Shown piece by piece: positions 5,971 to 31,479 of a stretch of DNA of 32,205 nucleotides; positions within the stretch are counted from its first letter, which is position 1; the number at the start of each line of letters is the position of its first letter. The position numbers were made by a program, and so were the translations under genes. The stretch comes from a virus (lineage: Duplodnaviria; Caudoviricetes). The notes below the pieces were generated by a model. The model saw only the letters and a program-made list of their open reading frames with translations. It was not told the DNA's origin and did no database searches. The DNA is taken from IMG/VR virus record IMGVR_UViG_3300008255_000317, positions 1-32,205 of that record; one strand, written 5' to 3'.

Positions 5971-7035
5971 TTACCCGGTCTTCGTGCCCTTCAGGAGCGC
6001 GAGCGGGAAGATACAGGCATAGAGCGGGTATGCCGCGACGAAGAAGTCGACGAACGACGGCATCTGGTCGCGCACGTCCGGCTGAATGTAGAGATATTCC
6101 GGCCGGCCCGGCTGGGTGATGTCGAGAAGCGTTTCACCCGGCGCCCAATAGACGTTGAACACGTCCTTCGCCCCGATCGGGAAGAAGTGCGCGTCGTTGA
6201 CGGCGACGTCGATCTCGCCACCGCTGCTGCCCTGGTAGTGCATGAAGGTGACGTTGCCGATACGGATCTCGTCGTAAGTCGGCAGGTTGAGAAGCGGGTT
6301 GGCCGCCAGCGCCACGGCGCGGGCCTGCTCGATCGCTTCCCAGCGCTTGCGGACGTCGACGTGGGTAATCAGCGAATACCAGAATTCGTCGCCGACAAGG
6401 CCGCCGATGCGGACATTCGGGGTCCAGCGGCCGTTCGCCTTCAGCACATCGATGATCGGATCGGCGATGTTCTTTTGGATGTAGAGCGCGAGCGCTCCTT
6501 CCGCGATGCCCGCGAAGTTGAAGTTGATCGTCGCCGGGGTGGAGATGCCATACTCGGCGAAATAGTCGACCAGAACGGTGCTTCCGTCGGCGTCGAGAAC
6601 CTTGCCCTGGAGCGCGCCGAGACGGTGCAGTTCCTTGGTGGCCTCGAGATCCGTCTTCAGTTGCTCGGTGCGCTCGACGGTGATCTGCTGTGCATTGCGC
6701 AGGCGGATCGTCTCGGGGAGCGCCGTGCTCGCCACGCCCATCAGTTCGCCGGCGCGAAGGGTGTCCTGCTTGCGCAGCGCGAGGGTCGACAGGGCGCGCA
6801 GGCGGCCCTGACGGCGGATCTGCTGGACCCAGGGCGAACCGCGCTCGGTTGCCGGGATCAGCGCGAAGCCGCCATCCTTCTCGTAGAGAAGCACTTCCTC
6901 GGTCTCGATCGGCTTGGGATCGAACATCCGAGCCATGCCGAGCGCCTGGGGCACATACGGCGATTTGTCGACGACGCGCTGCAAGCTGGTGACGCTGAAG
7001 GCGTCGTTCTTGAAGATGTCGAGGGTCAGTTCCAT
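5971..7035 (-). CDS. Major capsid protein (lambda gpE family)
   Basis: 354 aa. LDIFKNDAFSVTSL, EATKELHRLGALQGKVLDADG and DYFAEYGI are typical of gpE-family capsids. Confidence 0.93.
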   Translation of the reverse strand: MELTLDIFKNDAFSVTSLQRVVDKSPYVPQALGMARMFDPKPIETEEVLLYEKDGGFALIPATERGSPWVQQIRRQGRLRALSTLALRKQDTLRAGELMGVASTALPETIRLRNAQQITVERTEQLKTDLEATKELHRLGALQGKVLDADGSTVLVDYFAEYGISTPATINFNFAGIAEGALALYIQKNIADPIIDVLKANGRWTPNVRIGGLVGDEFWYSLITHVDVRKRWEAIEQARAVALAANPLLNLPTYDEIRIGNVTFMHYQGSSGGEIDVAVNDAHFFPIGAKDVFNVYWAPGETLLDITQPGRPEYLYIQPDVRDQMPSFVDFFVAAYPLYACIFPLALLKGTKTG

Positions 7036-7089
7036 TGCACTCGCTCCTGTCGACGCCGAAGCCCCCGCCCCGCGCGCCCATCCAAAGGG

Positions 7090-7485
7090 TTAGTAGCGGA
7101 CCATCAGGCTCCGCACGGCCATCGACGCTTCGACCGCAGCCTTTTGGGCGGCGTTCGCGGCGTTCGGCCAGGTGAGGGCGTTACCGTTCACCGCCTGGTC
7201 GCGGACATCCGCGACAGACTTCTGAACGGCGGCGCTGTTGGCGACATCGGCGTAGAGGATGACCGCCTCGTCGGGGTCTCCCGTGCCGTCGGCGGCCGCG
7301 GGATTGAAACCCGCATACTGGCCGGTTGCCGTCACCTTGCCGAGAACGGTGCCAGCCTTCATCGCGCCGGCATTCGCCTTGATGACGATTTCTTCGGTGG
7401 TGATGTTCTCGCCGGTGTGGCCACCGATACGATAGTGACCGCGACCGCGGCCATCGTAATCCATCGTCTTCAGAACGCCGGGCAT
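7090..7485 (-). CDS. Head decoration protein (gpD-like)
   Basis: 131 aa with AGTVLGKVTATGQY...AADGT...VILY, immediately upstream of the capsid gene. Confidence 0.9.
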   Translation of the reverse strand: MPGVLKTMDYDGRGRGHYRIGGHTGENITTEEIVIKANAGAMKAGTVLGKVTATGQYAGFNPAAADGTGDPDEAVILYADVANSAAVQKSVADVRDQAVNGNALTWPNAANAAQKAAVEASMAVRSLMVRY

Positions 7486-15237: not shown

Positions 15238-16689
15238 TCAGAAAAGTAGCGGGTCTGCTGTGTCGTCGAAGGCGTTGTAATCGCCCGATCGGCACGCGGA
15301 GTATTCGGGGTAGAAGCGGGCCGTGCGCGTGCCGACGCGGCCATGCCTGTTCTTCGCGCAGATCAGGTCCAGCTTGTTCCTGGCTGCGAACATTTCGGTT
15401 TCCCATTCTTCGAAGGCGTCGCGCTTGTCCGGCGTCTTGTCGCCGGGCTTGGGGCGCTCCTGCTCGAGATAGTATTCCTCGCGGTAGATGAAGGTGACGC
15501 TGTCGGCGTCCTGCTCGAGATCCCCGCTCTCCTTCAGATCGGACAGGATGGGGCGCTTGTTCTGGCGTTGCTCGACGCCGCGCGATAGCTGCGCGAGGGC
15601 GATCAGGGCGACATCCAGATCCTCGGCCAGTTTCTTCAGCATGCGCGAAACGGCGCTGACGCGGTCGTAGCCTTTCGTCAGCGGCTTCCCGTCGGCGGAA
15701 TGCGCGCCCAGCAGGCCGAGATAGTCGACGACGACGAATTCCAGTTCCCGCCCCTGCGCGGCGAGAAGCGCGCGATGTTGCGCAGCGAGCGAGTAGACGC
15801 GCTTCACGTCGACCGTGCCGGGCGTCAGGAACCGGATCGGCAGCAGCTTTCCGCGCTGCTCGACCTGGTCGACGATCCCCCAGCCGCCATCGGCGAGTTC
15901 GCCCTTCTTCAGCTTTTCGTGCTCGATCCGATGGCCCATCGCGTGCGCGAGATCGGCGGTCGACCGGATGGCCATCTGCTCGGCGCTCATTTCGTGATTG
16001 AAGACGAGACCGGGATGCCCGTTGATCGCGTAACCATAGGCAACTGATGAAGCGAGGCTCGACTTACCCATGCCGGGCCGCCCCGCGAGGATGTTGTAGG
16101 TTCCGCGCTCGAGGTTCAGCAGCGAGTCCCACTCTTCCACCAGCGCATTGCGCATGCCGGCGGCGTCTGGATTGTCTCGGATCTTCTCGGCGCGTTCGCG
16201 CACCAGCCGCGCAAGATCGCCAGCATGAAGCATGACGTCGACAGGCTTGCGCGCCGCGGCGGCCCAGCCGGACGCCTCCACCTTGCCGGTGATCGCGTCG
16301 ACCGGAACGTCCAGATCGTCATGAACGCTGTTCAGCGCTTCGCGCAGGGTTTCGCGCACACCGCGCCGCCCCGCGAGATCGGCAACCTGGTCCGCCAGCG
16401 CATCGATCGCTCCCTTGACGGCTGGCGCTTCGACGAGATCGCCGAGATAGTCGCCATACCGGCAATCACCATCGCTCGCGAACAGGGGGCGCAGCGTCAC
16501 CGCGTCGGCGCGCATGCCCTTTGCTGCAAAGCGGAGCATGGCCGAATAGATCCGGCCGTTGAGCGCGTCGGCAAAGTCATCGGGCTTCACACGATCGGCG
16601 ACGCCGATGATGCGATCGTTGTCGAGCATCAGGCCGCCGAGAAGAGCGGCTTCCGCGGTCGGATTTATGAGGCGATCGTTCGCGTTCAC
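15238..16689 (-). CDS. dnaB: Replicative DNA helicase, DnaB family
   Basis: Motifs ILAGRPGMGKS, VVVDYLGL, LAQLSRGVEQRQNKRPILSDLKESGDLEQDAD and AKNRHG. Confidence 0.96.
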   Translation of the reverse strand: MNANDRLINPTAEAALLGGLMLDNDRIIGVADRVKPDDFADALNGRIYSAMLRFAAKGMRADAVTLRPLFASDGDCRYGDYLGDLVEAPAVKGAIDALADQVADLAGRRGVRETLREALNSVHDDLDVPVDAITGKVEASGWAAAARKPVDVMLHAGDLARLVRERAEKIRDNPDAAGMRNALVEEWDSLLNLERGTYNILAGRPGMGKSSLASSVAYGYAINGHPGLVFNHEMSAEQMAIRSTADLAHAMGHRIEHEKLKKGELADGGWGIVDQVEQRGKLLPIRFLTPGTVDVKRVYSLAAQHRALLAAQGRELEFVVVDYLGLLGAHSADGKPLTKGYDRVSAVSRMLKKLAEDLDVALIALAQLSRGVEQRQNKRPILSDLKESGDLEQDADSVTFIYREEYYLEQERPKPGDKTPDKRDAFEEWETEMFAARNKLDLICAKNRHGRVGTRTARFYPEYSACRSGDYNAFDDTADPLLF

Positions 16690-17345: not shown

Positions 17346-17950
17346 TTCCGCTCCATGGTCTTCATCAACAGGGCGTCGCGCCACGGGCGCGGATGGATGG
17401 CATCGCCAATCTGGCTGATCCCATAGTCGAGGATCCCGCACGCCTCGGCGGCGTCGGCGATGTCCGTGTGCCAGCCGAATTCACCGCAACGCTGGATGGC
17501 CAGTTCTTTCGGATCCTCGCCGGGCAGGTAGGGCCGCCCCTTCAGCGTCTTGTCGCGCTTGAAGCCGGAGCCGCGCCCGATGAAATGAGAGCGCCACGTC
17601 GAGATGTGGACCTTGTAGCACCAGACCATCTTCTGATCGCGCGGCTTCACCTGAAAAGCGAATTTCTCGACCACGCCGCCGAGCGCGATCAGGCGGTAGA
17701 CGGTGTCGATATTGATCTTCGCGTCGATGTGCTGGGCTTCGAAGAACCAATGCGTGATCGGCGATCCCGCGTTCTTCGTCTTCAGGTAGATTTCGCGCAG
17801 GAAGCGCTCGAGCGCGTCCGCGGGACGGCCGACTTCGCCCGGCTGGCCGGGCAGCGTGAACGCGCCGAAGAAAGGGCGTGGCATGCCGACAGCGTGCCAC
17901 GCCCATCCCGTCGTCGTCGCCAGATCAAGGGCGAGGACCGAAGTTTTCAT
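17342..17950 (-). CDS. RuvC-like Holliday junction resolvase
   Basis: VLALDLATTTGWA, FFEAQ, STWRSHFIG and DAAEACGI match the RuvC-like acidic pattern. Confidence 0.75.
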   Translation of the reverse strand: MKTSVLALDLATTTGWAWHAVGMPRPFFGAFTLPGQPGEVGRPADALERFLREIYLKTKNAGSPITHWFFEAQHIDAKINIDTVYRLIALGGVVEKFAFQVKPRDQKMVWCYKVHISTWRSHFIGRGSGFKRDKTLKGRPYLPGEDPKELAIQRCGEFGWHTDIADAAEACGILDYGISQIGDAIHPRPWRDALLMKTMERK

Positions 17951-18528
17951 TCGGCGTCGTCTGCGAGGTCCGAATTGTCGCCGGTGTAAGGCTCTTCGCC
18001 GCCCGACATGGCATCCTTGGCGCGGTTCTTGGCGGCGGCTTCGGCGCGACCGGCTTGCTGGGCCAGTTCTTCGTCGCTCGCTTCCTCGAAATCATCTTCA
18101 TCGCCGCTGGTGCCGTCGACGTCGTTCTCGAGATCTTCGATTTCCTCTTCGATCGTGCCGTCACCCTCGTCTTCGACTTCCGGTTTGCCCTTGCCAGGGC
18201 GGAAATCGACGATGTTCCCCTCGGCACGGTCGACCAGATCGGCGCCCGTCTTCGGCAGGCCGGACGCGTCGAGCAGGCCGTTGAGGTCGCGGAACGTCAG
18301 GATCCGGTCGTTGTCGTCCAGCTTGCGCAGGATCATGAAGATTTTCGCGGCGGCCTTGTCGACGCCGTGGATCCCTTCACAAGCCGAGAACACGTCACCG
18401 ATGTCCTTCGCGGCCTTCTGCTGCTTGGCCTTCATCGCATCGATCGTCGTGAGGCGCTTGAACGCCCCGCGGTAATCGACCGGCTTCATGTCGGCGGCTA
18501 CTTTGCCGTCCTTCGCTGCTTGCGCCAT
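17947..18528 (-). CDS. Divergent GapR/DUF2312-like protein with an acidic C-terminal tail
   Basis: DIGDVFSACEGIHGVDKAAAKIFMILRKLDDNDR resembles the GapR core as I recall it (DIKDVYAEAKGxGFDxKxxRxIIRLRKMD). The tail is D/E-rich. Confidence 0.55.
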   Translation of the reverse strand: MAQAAKDGKVAADMKPVDYRGAFKRLTTIDAMKAKQQKAAKDIGDVFSACEGIHGVDKAAAKIFMILRKLDDNDRILTFRDLNGLLDASGLPKTGADLVDRAEGNIVDFRPGKGKPEVEDEGDGTIEEEIEDLENDVDGTSGDEDDFEEASDEELAQQAGRAEAAAKNRAKDAMSGGEEPYTGDNSDLADDAE

Positions 18529-18567: not shown

Positions 18568-18771
18568 TTATGCCGCCTCGTCGGCGACGAAATCATCCAT
18601 GTCATGCCCGTGCGATTCGCCCAGCAACACGATCGCCCTGCGATAGTGCTTCGGGATGCCCCGCACGCGCCAGTTGTAGATGTTCTGACGGGATGTGTGG
18701 AAGTGCTCGGCGAGCGCCGGGGCGCCGATGCGGTCAATCACTTCCATGTCGGATATGGTCTTCTTTGCCAT
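18568..18771 (-). CDS. Cro-like HTH regulator (67 aa)
   Basis: Start moved to 18771. IDRIGAPALAEHFHTSRQNIYNWRVRGIP is a Cro/YdaS-type HTH. First gene of the left arm. Confidence 0.85.
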   Translation of the reverse strand: MAKKTISDMEVIDRIGAPALAEHFHTSRQNIYNWRVRGIPKHYRRAIVLLGESHGHDMDDFVADEAA

Positions 18772-18777
18772 TTGGCG

Positions 18778-18806
18778 CTGATACGGCGCGATCTTGCGCT
18801 TGTAAA
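18778..18806 (-). promoter_or_regulatory. Leftward sigma70-type promoter, probably giving a leaderless mRNA
   Basis: TTTACA-17 nt-TATCAG-6 nt-ATG, with no SD before the Cro-like gene. Confidence 0.6.
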
Positions 18807-18819
18807 CAGGCGTTGACAA
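18800..18819. promoter_or_regulatory. Imperfect palindrome, candidate operator covering both -35 boxes
   Basis: TTGTAAAC-AGGC-GTTGACAA, 8-bp arms with one mismatch. Confidence 0.45.
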
Positions 18820-18844
18820 TTTTCCCTTGCACCCCGGCTTAAAG
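18813..18844 (+). promoter_or_regulatory. Rightward promoter
   Basis: Perfect TTGACA at 18813. GCTTAAAG at 18837-18844 is a loose alphaproteobacterial -10. Confidence 0.5.
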
Positions 18845-18891
18845 CCCGTCATACGGTGCGGCGTCGCAGCGATGCGGCAGACCACCAACCA

Positions 18892-18953
18892 GGAGCGGGC
18901 CGTCAGGTTCGCACTCGCATCCCCCGCCCCGCGCGCCCGATGCGCCCGCTCCC
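18892..18953 (+). ncRNA. Candidate structured leader/antisense RNA
   Basis: Outer stem GGAGCGGGC/GCCCGCTCC and inner stem GCATC/GATGC enclose a C-rich loop identical to the + strand upstream of the capsid gene. Confidence 0.4.
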
Positions 18954-18966
18954 ATAGCGAGGCTCC

Positions 18967-19365
18967 ATGATCCCCGATCCTCATATCCGCGAGCGCGGCG
19001 GCGCCGATCCGCTGATAGAAGGCTATTACCTGATCCGGCTGGACCGCGCGCGCCGTGTGAGTGTGCCGGTGCGGGTCTGGTATGGTCCGCCTAACGATCC
19101 CGAAACCGGCGAGCCGTTGGATCGCTCGCATCGCTGGCAGATACAGGTTGGCTTCCAGCTTCTCGAGGAAGGGCCGCTGCGCATCGGCGGCATCTGGATC
19201 GAGGGATTGACGGACGTCTGGCCGTCGTGCGCGAAGAACCCGATCGACCGCGTCGATTGGCAGTATCGACTCGAGCGCGCCGAATGGGCGACGACGAACG
19301 ACGGGGATGATCCCTATTCGCAACTTGGAGGGCGCATCGATCCGATGACGTGCTCGCTGCCATGA
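18967..19365 (+). CDS. Hypothetical protein
   Basis: 132 aa, SD GAGG. Contains DPETGEPLDRSHRW. First gene of the right arm. Confidence 0.75.
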   Translation: MIPDPHIRERGGADPLIEGYYLIRLDRARRVSVPVRVWYGPPNDPETGEPLDRSHRWQIQVGFQLLEEGPLRIGGIWIEGLTDVWPSCAKNPIDRVDWQYRLERAEWATTNDGDDPYSQLGGRIDPMTCSLP

Positions 19366-25532: not shown

Positions 25533-25677
25533 GGCGCCCGTCGACGATGCCGCGTGCAAGCGTTGCGATGATAGCGGCCTTCTACCGCGGGGCGGCGCCG
25601 AATCGGATGTCTGCACCTGCCCGGCAGGCGGTCGCGTGCTGGATCAGCTTGCCGATCGTGAGGCTCGAGCCGCATGA
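25525..25677 (+). CDS. Small Zn-binding protein
   Basis: 50 aa with CKRCDDSG...CTCPAG, coupled to the primase gene. Confidence 0.6.
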   Translation: MAKAPVDDAACKRCDDSGLLPRGGAESDVCTCPAGGRVLDQLADREARAA

Positions 25678-27341
25678 CAATCCCTACCGGCTTCCTCGAC
25701 GAGATCCGCGCCAGGACGACGCTGTCTTCGCTTATCAGCCGATCAGGCGTGCCGCTCAAGAAGGCGGGGCGCGAGTGGAAGGCGCCTTGCCCGTTCCACA
25801 ACGAGAAGACGCCCAGCTTCTACGTCAACGACGAGAAGGCGTTCTACCATTGCTTCGGATGCCAGGCGCACGGTGACGCGATCGGCTGGATGGTCGACCA
25901 TGACGGCATGCAATTCATCGATGCGGTGAAGGAACTGGCCGAGCAAGCCGGTCTGGAGATGCCCGCGCCGGATCCGCAAGCTGCGCAGCGCGCGAAGAGG
26001 CGTGACAGCTACGTCGACATCAATGCCCGAGCGCAAAGGTTCTTCGTTGGACGGCTGGACGCTGGCCCCGGCGACCTCGATGCTTCGGCCGCCGTGAAAT
26101 ACCTCGTCGACCGCGGCATTGACGGGGCCGCTATCGACAAATTCCAGATTGGCTTCGCACCGAACTCCCGGCCCGGCCAGCCGGCGCCCTTGGTCGAGAC
26201 GCTGAAGGATGTGGATGCGGCCGAACTGGAGCGGCTGGGCCTCGTCAAACGCAACCCCGACAGCGGGCGCGCCTACGATTTCTTTCGCCGGCGCATCATG
26301 ATCCCCATCCATGACGCGCGCGGCAACACCATCGGCTTCGGCGGGCGAATCGTCGGCGCCGGAGAGCCGAAATATCTGAACTCTCCCGATACCCCCGTCT
26401 TCGACAAGGGCCGCACGCTGTTCAACCTTCACCGCGTCGCGCCAGCCGCGCGCGCCAAGGGCCGCCTGCTGATCGTCGAAGGCTACATGGACGTCATCGG
26501 CCTGGACAGCGTCGGCTTCGATGTCGCGGTGGCACCGAACGGGACCGCGCTGACGGAGCATCAGCTATTCCTCGCGTGGAAGCTGGTCGACACGCCGACG
26601 GTGTGCTTCGACGGCGATAATGCGGGCCGGAAGGCGATGGCCCGTGCCGCCTACCGTGCCCTCCCGATCATGGAGCCGGGAAAGGGTCTGCGCTTCGCCA
26701 AACTGCCGGAAGGCAAGGATCCTGACGATATGGCGCGACAGGACGGACTCGAGGCGGTCAATGCGATGGTCGAAGGGGCGGCGCCGCTCGTCGACGTCAT
26801 CTGGCGCGATCTGTTGGAGCGCTACGATCAGCGCAATCCCGATCAGCGCGCAGCGATGGCTGCGGAAATCAAGAAGGTGGTTGCGGGGATCCGGAACGTC
26901 GACGTGCGCGAATCCTACCGGGAAGCGCTGCGCACGCTCTATCGCACGAACGGGGAGCGAAGCCGGGCGACGAGCGGCCGCCATAGCGAGCGTGGCCCGG
27001 CCAGAAACGTCGCGATGGCGGTTGAAGGCGCATTGATCCTCGGCGTGATCGACATGCCGGCGGTGATCGAAGGGCAGGGCGAGAACATCGCCAAGCTGGC
27101 ATGGCGAGCCGAACAGCACCAGCGTATCGTAGACGTGCTTTACGACGCGTCCTGGCTGACGGCCATGAACAACGAGCCTTTGACGCGCGACATCGCGCTC
27201 GAGGCGATCGAGAAGGCCGGGCTGACGGAATATGTCGGCAATCTCCGGCGATTGGCGCTCCGGCTTCCATTCGCAACGGAATCGGACCCACAAACCGCGC
27301 GGGCGCTGCTGATACAGGCGCTTCGCGACAATTTCACCTGA
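25674..27341 (+). CDS. dnaG: DNA primase, bacterial DnaG type
   Basis: CPFHNEKTPSF...HCFGC, PKYLNSPDT, TOPRIM IVEGYMDV, FDGDNAG and GKDPDD. Confidence 0.97.
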   Translation: MTIPTGFLDEIRARTTLSSLISRSGVPLKKAGREWKAPCPFHNEKTPSFYVNDEKAFYHCFGCQAHGDAIGWMVDHDGMQFIDAVKELAEQAGLEMPAPDPQAAQRAKRRDSYVDINARAQRFFVGRLDAGPGDLDASAAVKYLVDRGIDGAAIDKFQIGFAPNSRPGQPAPLVETLKDVDAAELERLGLVKRNPDSGRAYDFFRRRIMIPIHDARGNTIGFGGRIVGAGEPKYLNSPDTPVFDKGRTLFNLHRVAPAARAKGRLLIVEGYMDVIGLDSVGFDVAVAPNGTALTEHQLFLAWKLVDTPTVCFDGDNAGRKAMARAAYRALPIMEPGKGLRFAKLPEGKDPDDMARQDGLEAVNAMVEGAAPLVDVIWRDLLERYDQRNPDQRAAMAAEIKKVVAGIRNVDVRESYREALRTLYRTNGERSRATSGRHSERGPARNVAMAVEGALILGVIDMPAVIEGQGENIAKLAWRAEQHQRIVDVLYDASWLTAMNNEPLTRDIALEAIEKAGLTEYVGNLRRLALRLPFATESDPQTARALLIQALRDNFT

Positions 27342-28672: not shown

Positions 28673-28954
28673 ATGGATGAAATCAAAGAGAAGCTGATCG
28701 AAATGCTGCGCGAAGCGCATGGCGATGACGTCGCCTTTGCAGCAGCGGCCGGCGAAGAGATCTTCGCGACGCATGGCGCGGGCTGGGGCGACGGCAAGCT
28801 GGATAGCCTGGACAGGCTCGAATTCGTCATGGCTGTCGAAGACGAATACGACATCGAGATCACCGATGCCCTCACCGTCGACGTCCGAACGGCGGATCAG
28901 GTCGCCGAACTTGTCGACACGCTGACGCGCGGCGCGGCGCATGGGGCGCATTGA
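28673..28954 (+). CDS. Acyl carrier protein
   Basis: Acidic 93 aa with LDSLDRLEFVMAVEDEYDIEITD, carrying the phosphopantetheine-site Ser. SD GGGAG. Confidence 0.9.
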   Translation: MDEIKEKLIEMLREAHGDDVAFAAAAGEEIFATHGAGWGDGKLDSLDRLEFVMAVEDEYDIEITDALTVDVRTADQVAELVDTLTRGAAHGAH

Positions 28955-29420: not shown

Positions 29421-29764
29421 AGGCGCGCGATCTGGCCCGGTATCTCCAATATCATCGCTATCGGCTGGGGCACGAAAGGCTTCTCGGCGACGATGTCGAA
29501 GCGCATCTCGAGGATGCGGGTATCGAATTCGAGCGTGAGAAGATCCTTGGCCCGGCCGACCGCGTGGATTTCCTCGTCGGCGGCACCGCTGTCGAACTGA
29601 AGATCAAGGCGCAGAAGCGCGCCATCTATCGCCAGATGGAGCGATACGCGATGCACGACGTCGTCGACGGTCTCATTCTCGTCACCGCGGGGGCGACATC
29701 CCTCCCGGCGCGCATCAACGACAAGCCAGTCTTCGTCGTGAAGCTGGGGTTGACCGGCCTGTGA
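29417..29764 (+). CDS. Small PD-(D/E)xK nuclease
   Basis: FERE...RVDFLV...VELK...QMERY pattern, coupled to the helicase gene. Confidence 0.75.
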   Translation: MKARDLARYLQYHRYRLGHERLLGDDVEAHLEDAGIEFEREKILGPADRVDFLVGGTAVELKIKAQKRAIYRQMERYAMHDVVDGLILVTAGATSLPARINDKPVFVVKLGLTGL

Positions 29765-31479
29765 GAACATTCGGCAAGCTGCGCTACGGCAAATTCGAAG
29801 GTGGCGCGGTGTGGGGGGTTTCCAACCTCGCCCCGCACGTCGCGATCGCTTTCAAGCGCCTGTTCCCCAAGGTTCACACAAAGCGCACCACGCACATCCT
29901 GACGGACAACGACGACACGCGCGCAGATCTCGATTGGTTCATGCTGCGCTACCCGCTGGACGTCCGCGCGGTCGAACGCGAGATGCTGGCCGAGGGTGCG
30001 GCACGGATGGCGGCCCGCGCGGCCGAAAGAGACGAGATCCTGCAACTCGATTGGGAGCCGGGCGATACGCCGGCGGTCTTCCGGCCGGGCAAGGTGCCCT
30101 ATCTCTATCAGGAACAGGCCGCCACGCTGGCGGTGCGCAATAATGCGCTGCTGCTGTGCGACGATGTCGGGCTGGGGAAGACGATAACGACGTTCACGGT
30201 CGCGGCTCGAGGCGCTGCGCTCCCGATGGCGATCGTCGTTCAATCGCACCTGGTCCGGCAATGGGGGAAGAAGGCGCGCGAATTCACGACGTTCCGCGTC
30301 CACGAAATCAAGCAGAGCAAGCCCTACCCCCTCCCTGTCGCCGACCTCTACATCTTCAGCTACAACATGCTCCACGGCTGGCTGGAAGTGCTCGCGTCCG
30401 GCATGTTCAAGTCCGCGGCCTTCGACGAGATACAGGAACTCCGGCATGGGCCGAAGAAGACCGAGTGGGACGCGAAGGGGACACAGAAGGGCAATGCTGC
30501 GCTCGTCCTCACCGAAGCTGTCGACACCAATGCCAGGGGCGTCCTGCTCGGCCTGACAGCGACGCCTGTCTACAATTACGGCGACGAGATGCACACGGTC
30601 ATGCGCTACATCGCTCCCCATGTGCTCGGCGATCGCGAAGAATTCATTCGTGAGTGGTGCCATGGTGACGGAAGCGGGCACGCGATCGTCAACGATCCAG
30701 ACGCGCTCGGCAGCTTTCTCGACAGCACGGGCTATCGTTTGCGCCGGCGCGAGGATGACGAAGTCGTCGACAAGTCCATGCCGCCGCCGAACATCGTGGA
30801 ATTCGAACTCGATTACGACCGGATCGCGCTTCAGAAAGAAGAAGAGATCCTGAAGTCGCTCGCCGAAACCGTGCTCACGGGCAAATTCGAGGATGCGGGC
30901 CAGGCCAGCCGCGAACTGGACGTCCGGATGCGCCATCTGACGGGCGTCGCGAAAGCGAAGCCGGTCGCCGCCTACGTCAACATGCTCCTGCGCGAGCGCA
31001 AGAAGGTGGTGCTCGCTGGCTGGCACCGCGACGTCTACGATCTGTGGCGCTACGCGCTCCAGAAGCACAATCCCGTGCTCTACACCGGCAGCGAAAGCCA
31101 GGCGGGCAAGGCACGCAACGTCGAGCGGTTCTGCGAAGGCGACAGCGACGTGCTGATGATCTCCCTTCGATCAGGTGCCGGTCTCGATGGGCTTCAGCAC
31201 GTTTGCCAGGACGTCGTCTTCGGCGAACTCGATTGGTCCCCCCAGGTGCATTACCAGCTTCTCGGCCGCGTCCGCCGGCCCGGCCAGCTTCACCAAGTCA
31301 CCGGGCACTATCTCCACGTCAACGGCGGCAGCGATCCGGTCCTGATGTCGATGCTGGGCGTGAAGGCCGATCAGTCGCGCGGGATCCTCGATCCCGGCCA
31401 GGCGCCTCGAGCACGGGTCAACGATGACAGCCGGATCAAGACGCTCGCGCGGTTCGTGCTGGATGGCGATCGTGCATAG
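29761..31479 (+). CDS. SNF2-family helicase/translocase
   Basis: DDVGLGKT, FDEIQE, LTATP, GAGLDGLQ, ELDWSP and QLLGRVRRPGQ. Confidence 0.93.
   Translation: MRTFGKLRYGKFEGGAVWGVSNLAPHVAIAFKRLFPKVHTKRTTHILTDNDDTRADLDWFMLRYPLDVRAVEREMLAEGAARMAARAAERDEILQLDWEPGDTPAVFRPGKVPYLYQEQAATLAVRNNALLLCDDVGLGKTITTFTVAARGAALPMAIVVQSHLVRQWGKKAREFTTFRVHEIKQSKPYPLPVADLYIFSYNMLHGWLEVLASGMFKSAAFDEIQELRHGPKKTEWDAKGTQKGNAALVLTEAVDTNARGVLLGLTATPVYNYGDEMHTVMRYIAPHVLGDREEFIREWCHGDGSGHAIVNDPDALGSFLDSTGYRLRRREDDEVVDKSMPPPNIVEFELDYDRIALQKEEEILKSLAETVLTGKFEDAGQASRELDVRMRHLTGVAKAKPVAAYVNMLLRERKKVVLAGWHRDVYDLWRYALQKHNPVLYTGSESQAGKARNVERFCEGDSDVLMISLRSGAGLDGLQHVCQDVVFGELDWSPQVHYQLLGRVRRPGQLHQVTGHYLHVNGGSDPVLMSMLGVKADQSRGILDPGQAPRARVNDDSRIKTLARFVLDGDRA

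Follow-up and report, generated by a model that had tools for sequence, protein, structure and literature searches.

A candidate trans-acting antisense RNA in the early leader of a lambda-like siphophage, complementary to its major capsid mRNA

The early leader of an uncultured lambda-like siphophage contains a predicted hairpin with a C-rich segment that is complementary to the mRNA of the phage's own major capsid gene. Comparison with relatives indicates that the link between the two sites is real, conserved and covarying, and most likely exerted at the RNA level. We analyzed the whole 32,205-base virus record, hereafter called the window. An initial annotation of this DNA had proposed that a trans-antisense RNA from the leader silences capsid translation. 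The RNA–RNA link in that proposal held up, through covariation, an asymmetry in G-U pairs and reciprocal best ranking in three genomes, but occlusion of the capsid Shine–Dalgarno (SD) sequence did not exceed chance. We tentatively suggest that the leader hairpin may act in trans as an antisense RNA that restrains capsid synthesis early in infection.

The divergent operons and the early leader

The window phage is a lambda-like siphophage in which two divergent operons meet at 18770–18970. The leftward operon opens with a small Cro-like helix-turn-helix gene (18568–18771, minus strand; phrog_8008, DNA-binding), for which the YdaS/HTH_28 matches are weak and under their cut-offs. It continues with a GapR/DsbA-like gene, a methylase, DnaB and an O-like initiator, and then with terminase, portal, protease, decoration, major capsid and tail genes. 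The 193-aa gene in second position (17947–18528) is kept family-wide in that place; its GapR/DsbA-like N-terminal look-alikes (score 0.85) are a lead only. The rightward operon contains RecT-like, primase, helicase and other genes. The phage has two replication sets, a leftward one made up of the O-like initiator, DnaB and a loader-like gene (15238–16689, minus strand) and a rightward one with the primase and a second helicase (25674–27341 and 29761–31479, plus strand). An acyl-carrier-protein-like gene at 28673–28954 is also found in relatives G002, G003 and G004.

Between the Cro-like gene and TerL, neighboring called genes either overlap or are separated by gaps of at most 78 nt, the two biggest being 78 and 47 nt. 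The 174-aa gene 5′ of the small terminase has helicase-loader families as its nearest named look-alikes (scores 0.83–0.84, under the lead bar) and, as a lead only, resembles a helicase loader more than Q. Both observations fit the earlier remark that this operon lacks an obvious late switch. The capsid gene, placed on the minus strand in the original annotation as well, is a lambda E-type gene of 354 aa at 5971–7035 (phrog_29; PF03864, E 3e-40), preceded by a lambda D-type head decoration gene at 7090–7485 (minus strand; phrog_49; PF02924).

The first rightward gene (18967–19365, plus strand) encodes 132 aa and has 32 homologues, among them a distant one in a Sphingomonas genome and, apart from that of G004, four on contigs of 45–65 kb; it has no PHROG match and no Pfam match. 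The gene directly after the hairpin is a different one in G004 and G005. Among 37 genes scanned in the complete relative G004, below position 34,000, none matched an integrase or repressor. For this phage we infer that the host is an alphaproteobacterium and that the life style is lytic.

A rightward, presumably early, promoter-like motif, TTG-N20-(C/G)ATA(C/T), is located at 18827–18855 (plus strand), with a predicted start near 18861–18863. It has only two matches in the window when both strands are scanned, and it occurs in the same register in 10 of 15 divergent regions, a conservation that is partly circular because the motif was derived from these same sequences. An E. coli-type promoter scan found none. 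The motif resembles the S. meliloti sigma-70 consensus CTTGAC-N17-CTATAT, as given in PMC2873474. On the other side of the junction, a leftward promoter-like sequence, TTTACA-N17-TATCAG (18778–18806, minus strand), ends 6 nt from the Cro-like start codon. It overlaps an imperfect, operator-like palindrome that spans the divergent promoters (18801–18818, noted by eye), and it is possible that the Cro-like transcript is nearly leaderless and autoregulated.

Folding of the leader predicts a small 5′ hairpin (18857–18879, plus strand), an unpaired linker, GACCACC (18880–18886, plus strand), and a long hairpin (18892–18952, plus strand) that is the candidate body of the antisense RNA. The small hairpin is weakly retained in a three-sequence consensus, with several pairs broken, and the linker is invariant in the window (G000) and relatives G004 and G012. 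The outer stem of the long hairpin, 18892–18900/18944–18952, had been noticed in the initial annotation and does form in these predictions: the segment 18885–18960 is more stable than expected (z −4.06, 0 of 200 shuffles), while the full leader, 18845–18966, reaches only z −1.70 (11 of 200 shuffles). Across the three sequences, 3 pairs of the 13-pair stem are changed on both sides. A second, inner stem described in the same annotation, GCATC/GATGC, is not predicted (pair probability 3e-5).

No Rfam family, including C4 and related phage antisense RNAs, matched the leader in the window at E up to 5, and four relative loci gave 0 matches at the gathering score. The leader has no conserved reading frame; a 32-codon frame present in the window is lost in G004 and G012. 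We therefore rejected a leader peptide, or a Cro-like frame extended through the leader, because frame conservation is absent. There is no U-tract 3′ of the hairpin in the window or G004, and no terminator was found in the window, so a discrete RNA would require processing; U-rich tails do follow the hairpin in G012 and G002. A single low-depth contig from sequencing run X24 (record 13) agrees with the leader up to 18952, the final base of the hairpin, and then diverges, suggesting that the first early gene was swapped at the hairpin edge.

The two sites and their coupling across relatives

Among exact matches linking the leader to other parts of the window, the longest is an 18-nt direct repeat, 18921–18938 and 7062–7079, and no further copies occur in the window even when up to 3 mismatches are allowed. 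With the capsid gene encoded on the minus strand, an RNA read from the plus strand of the leader is complementary to positions −44 to −27 of the capsid mRNA, counted from the AUG, in agreement with the 18-nt complementarity upstream of the SD reported earlier. The C-rich antisense segment (18921–18938, plus strand) had been described as exposed in a loop. This is true of its C-runs, since CCCCC (18921–18925) and CCC are predicted to be unpaired and could serve as a toehold, but its 3′ half is paired within the hairpin. The G-rich target (7062–7079, minus strand) lies in the decoration–capsid gap and is kept in G004, G012 and L063. The leader is 11.9 kb from this target and not on the opposite strand of the target gene, so any such RNA is not cis-encoded.

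The 18-mer by itself is not beyond chance, because 0.33–0.8 such repeats are expected per window on average from Markov shuffles; at least one was found in 16/60, 27/60 and 36/60 shuffles. The window holds three exact repeats of at least 18 nt. The other two (22513/29344 and 457/26957; 19 and 18 nt) lie inside coding regions and were taken as background. It is the comparative evidence from relatives that lifts the match above chance.

Relatives were gathered by scans with the capsid, DnaB, TerL and the 132-aa gene, and 12 records, the window included, contain both the divergent region and a capsid gene. No close relative was present among 50,697 annotated phage records, where TerL identity was about 25% at best and the 132-aa gene had no match. 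The window, G004 and G012 form one TerL branch (support 98/97), with capsid identities to the window of 69% (G004) and 63% (G012). In these three, and in G005 and G002, the promoter is followed by a long hairpin with a C-rich loop; the five all fall within one TerL branch (100/99). The distant provirus G010 has such a hairpin after its promoter too. G006–G009, G011 and G016–G018 have no long hairpin, and their first gene begins within a few tens of bases; in G015, a CI-like gene, identified by eye, occupies the hairpin position. The capsid gene of G005 and the leader of L063 lie off their contigs.

A covariance model built from the three leaders and run against 59 sources (931,609 bases) returned only those leaders and an identical copy, L062, with the next best match at E 0.014; five further records gave one weak match (E 0.065). 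The model does not detect the leaders of G002 or G005, which are therefore positional analogues rather than demonstrated homologues. Pattern scans of viral contigs yielded at least 120 loci for the leader, of which, among the matches listed, two have the closing arm and neither of these the C-run, and nine loci for the capsid untranslated region (UTR), of which four were capsids already in our set and five were unrelated. No RNA run was among the 24 runs listed as carrying the sequence, and contigs from seven DNA runs contained no paired variants. In G003, pieces of the early promoter region (13–17 nt) recur between C1:13486–13599 and positions 890–1060 and 58435, suggesting repeated early promoters in that genome.

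G004 and G012 have the same hairpin after the same promoter-like motif, and it is complementary to their own capsid leaders over 19–22 nt. In 3 of 11 records (the window, G004 and G012), the best contiguous complement of the capsid UTR in the whole record is the leader, with scores of 55, 48 and 53 against 47, 42 and 46 for the runners-up. The capsid UTRs of the other eight records have best scores of 37–42, and no trans partner stands out. In the reciprocal direction, using a home-made gene caller and a home-made energy model that includes opening costs, the capsid start ranked 1/40, 1/81 and 1/50 among called starts, at −26.8, −18.1 and −30.2 kcal/mol against −11.2, −15.2 and −12.7 for the runners-up (window, G004, G012). 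In a raw scan of 60-nt windows, the capsid region ranked 1/3186, 8/5938 and 1/3700, respectively.

As the initial annotation had suggested looking for, the two sites change together in G004 and G012. The CCC that ends the helix at both window sites is ATG at both G012 sites, and a C-G pair at the other edge of the core becomes U-A in G004. The helix has 18 Watson–Crick columns and 1 G-U in the window, 16 Watson–Crick, 5 G-U and 1 mismatch in G004, and 18 Watson–Crick and 1 G-U in G012. Shuffling the 3′ extension around a constant shared core matched the observed energy in only 3, 2 and 2 of 1000 trials (window, G004, G012). Of the six interior positions that are not identical, five are G-U on the leader (plus) and mRNA strands and none on the opposite strands, although self-pairing within the leader hairpin could contribute to this bias. 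Pairing favors the predicted strands over their complements in G004 (−58.4 vs. −45.8) and G012 (−64.9 vs. −55.5), with a tie in the window. The diverged loop of G005 pairs over 16 nt with the window capsid UTR, 6 nt of which lie beyond the window leader's own match. Taken as sequence comparison, these observations make it probable that the leader and the capsid UTR pair as RNA with RNA. The leader also shows several features expected of a trans-encoded sRNA: complementarity to a distant target conserved in three genomes, a seed predicted to be accessible in a stable structure (C-run unpaired, z −4.06) and no conserved coding frame, the 32-codon frame being lost in G004 and G012.

Only three complete pairs of the two sites were found, all in one clade, and since these genomes are kin they are not three independent origins. 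The C-rich hairpin is present in G002 and G010, where the capsid start ranks only 55/82 and the capsid window only 1446/5914, so the link holds in three of the five hairpin-bearing records with a capsid gene. The G004 leader pairs with the window's UTR as well as, or slightly better than, with its own. In G002, the leader (L050:9920–9975) forms a strong C-rich-loop hairpin at the same position, with no partner found in that complete genome; its loop ranked the start of a putative tail-tube gene 1/82, a candidate that we rejected because 124/200 shuffled cores and 139/200 shuffled full loops did equally well. An 11-bp match of the G003 leader to its own capsid UTR (rank 155/6130 windows) was not counted, and a 13-nt match of the same leader at 46515 falls inside a gene.

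Two alternatives to an RNA duplex bear on these data. The two copies might be a shared DNA-binding site, recognized by the Cro-like or the GapR-like protein, or a DNA repeat homogenized by conversion, with the hairpin having a separate role in cis. The 10-bp core is identical at both sites in the window, G004 and G012, small DNA-binding proteins are encoded next to the leader and the strand test ties in the window, all of which would suit a DNA site. In G004, however, 5 of 21 positions are not the same in the two copies, and 4 of these differences run in the one direction that preserves RNA pairing; one copy is within a conserved hairpin; and there are only two copies, with no dyad symmetry. 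This alternative, already raised in the initial annotation, is weakened by these points to the extent that we consider it quite unlikely. Chance, or an old duplication with no current function whose G-rich tract and C-rich loop were simply passed down by descent, is very improbable: it is common for a window to contain one 18-nt repeat, many capsid genes of the family are preceded by G-rich tracts and the C-rich loop persists in G002, where no partner was found, but flank changes are concerted at both sites and the capsid ranks first in three genomes at 63–69% capsid identity.

Direction of effect and proposed mechanism

The supported helix covers −44 to −27 relative to the capsid AUG, which places it 5′ of the ribosome site. 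A ribosome footprint extends roughly from −20 to +15. Because the significant helix is upstream of that footprint, silencing by SD occlusion is not supported beyond chance. The initial annotation had extended the pairing to the 8 nt between the SD and the AUG and, weakly, to the first codons. The capsid SD (AGGAG, 7044–7048) and spacer can be read directly from the sequence (7037–7048, minus strand), and an 8-nt leader segment (18911–18918, plus strand) does match 7037–7044 and could form a second helix. The spacer match is no better than shuffles, however, and neither is the pairing with the first codons: the SD/spacer/first-codon helix was equalled by 288, 178 and 48 of 1000 shuffles in the window, G004 and G012, so we rejected it as independent evidence. 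Predicted duplexes do reach the SD region in all three genomes, in a part that is no better than shuffles.

The same RNA duplex could have the opposite sign, with the leader RNA, which would accumulate, activating or stabilizing the capsid cistron through sequestration of an inhibitory G-tract or protection of a processed 5′ end. The position of the significant helix upstream of the SD would fit this. In G008, G016, L097 and L101, fold prediction pairs the equivalent G-tract in cis with the opening codons of the capsid gene, so that the SD and AUG are enclosed; with the tract blocked, opening the start becomes cheaper by 4.8, 5.3, 2.6 and 4.7 kcal/mol. G008 and G016 were seen to be without the leader hairpin, and L097 and L101 have no leader on record. 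Activation stays viable because of this predicted cis pairing. sRNAs that bind 5′ UTRs can also work either way, as with cfa (PMC12691595). Against activation, blocking the tract in the leader-bearing genomes shifts the opening cost by only +0.1, −1.9 and +1.9 kcal/mol (window, G004, G012; L063, +2.1) with 80 + 60 nt of context. The estimate is unstable, since a shorter context of 70 + 30 nt changes the three values to +1.6, −3.0 and −5.3 kcal/mol. The RNA would, moreover, originate from an early promoter. Overall, we regard activation or stabilization as unlikely.

The G-tract was also predicted to pair in two ways at the capsid starts L096:5850–5920, L100:8700–8770, L097:715–785 and L101:5665–5730. 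Its partners in this sister clade are either the first six capsid codons (12–16 bp, SD and AUG enclosed, with matching changes between genomes) or a local CCUCC. By these fold predictions, the sister clade holds a candidate cis switch on capsid translation.

In a further alternative, the duplex works in reverse, so that capsid mRNA or an excised D–E spacer binds the early leader and feeds back on early transcription or stability. The duplex is symmetric, and the U-rich tails after the hairpin in G012 and G002 are attenuator-like. The window and G004 are without a U-tract, however, the duplex would leave the outer stem unbroken, and no conserved alternative pairing with the start of the first gene, which itself varies, was seen. 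We consider such feedback very improbable.

Silencing by the leader RNA is likelier than activation or stabilization, and we favor repression because of the presumed early promoter, the predicted duplexes over the SD region in three genomes and the plausible suitability of the helix for cleavage. A duplex of 18–22 bp is a plausible RNase III substrate. Among known antisense RNAs, OOP works via RNase III (PMC12197685).

From the observed complementarity, its conservation and its covariation, we infer the following steps. The conserved promoter-like motif would direct early transcription of the leader, and the hairpin would persist either as leader or as a processed RNA of about 60–100 nt. The exposed C-run would seed on the G-run and zip, with displacement of the inner stem, into a duplex of 18–22 bp. 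This duplex could cut capsid output by one of three routes: the freed 5′ arm might extend weakly over the SD region, the upstream duplex might block ribosome access, or RNase III-type cleavage might occur between the D and E cistrons. Capsid translation would be released once the Cro-like protein shuts the early promoter or once late mRNA exceeds the RNA.

A broader and more doubtful reading, possible on present evidence, is that the early-operon leader is a trans RNA switch on the phage's own major capsid cistron. It would serve, where a Q-type antiterminator or a late promoter might be expected, as an early-to-late timer derived from the G-tract that sister phages are predicted to pair in cis, in a clade of probably lytic, probably alphaproteobacterial siphophages whose replication, packaging and structural genes would be transcribed as a single near-gapless operon. 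The timing of phage late genes is usually credited to proteins such as antiterminators, sigma factors and activators. If the reading is true, a leader-derived RNA would set the timing of the most abundant virion protein at the RNA level, and the predicted cis pairing of the same G-tract in the sister clade would offer a rare view of a cis structure becoming a trans regulator. The two short, separable sequences defined here are amenable to testing without phage culture.

Comparison with known phage RNAs

The CI RNA of P4, like c4, is a structured phage RNA with loop complementarity that acts on the phage's own mRNA. The c4 RNA of P1 and P7 resembles the leader in being a structured phage RNA with its complementarity in loops and a target in its own phage's mRNA; that target, according to PMC12197685, is the antirepressor mRNA around the ribosome-binding site, and its function is immunity. 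The leader, in contrast, would target the major capsid cistron of a divergent operon 12 kb off, upstream of the SD, and has no Rfam match. Late or regulatory functions are delayed or limited by other phage antisense RNAs, among them lambda aQ and OOP, P22 sar, BTP1 STnc6030 and PAK_P4as15. As described in PMC12197685, these target Q, cII, ant, a tailspike or an endolysin, in most cases being transcribed opposite the gene they act on, and none of them hits a capsid gene from a distant locus. In the literature on phage sRNAs and capsids, of which our coverage was partial and took in few subscription papers, we found no phage leader RNA acting on its own capsid mRNA.

Two sRNAs come close in target. 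CisR of Vibrio cholerae acts in trans to lower the CTX-phi coat mRNA cep via its 5′ region, and is host-encoded, 3′-UTR-derived, Hfq-dependent and bound to the ribosome-binding site (PMC13250501); the candidate leader RNA differs in being phage-encoded and 5′-leader-derived, with near-perfect complementarity over 18–22 nt. SviR of the PLE satellite lowers translation beside the capsid operon of ICP1 (gp120), but it is encoded by a phage parasite and its target is not the major capsid protein (bioRxiv 10.1101/2022.04.08.487710). Placed among these systems, the candidate likely works as a trans-encoded, rather than cis-encoded, antisense RNA with a loop seed, and would lie outside the Rfam families.
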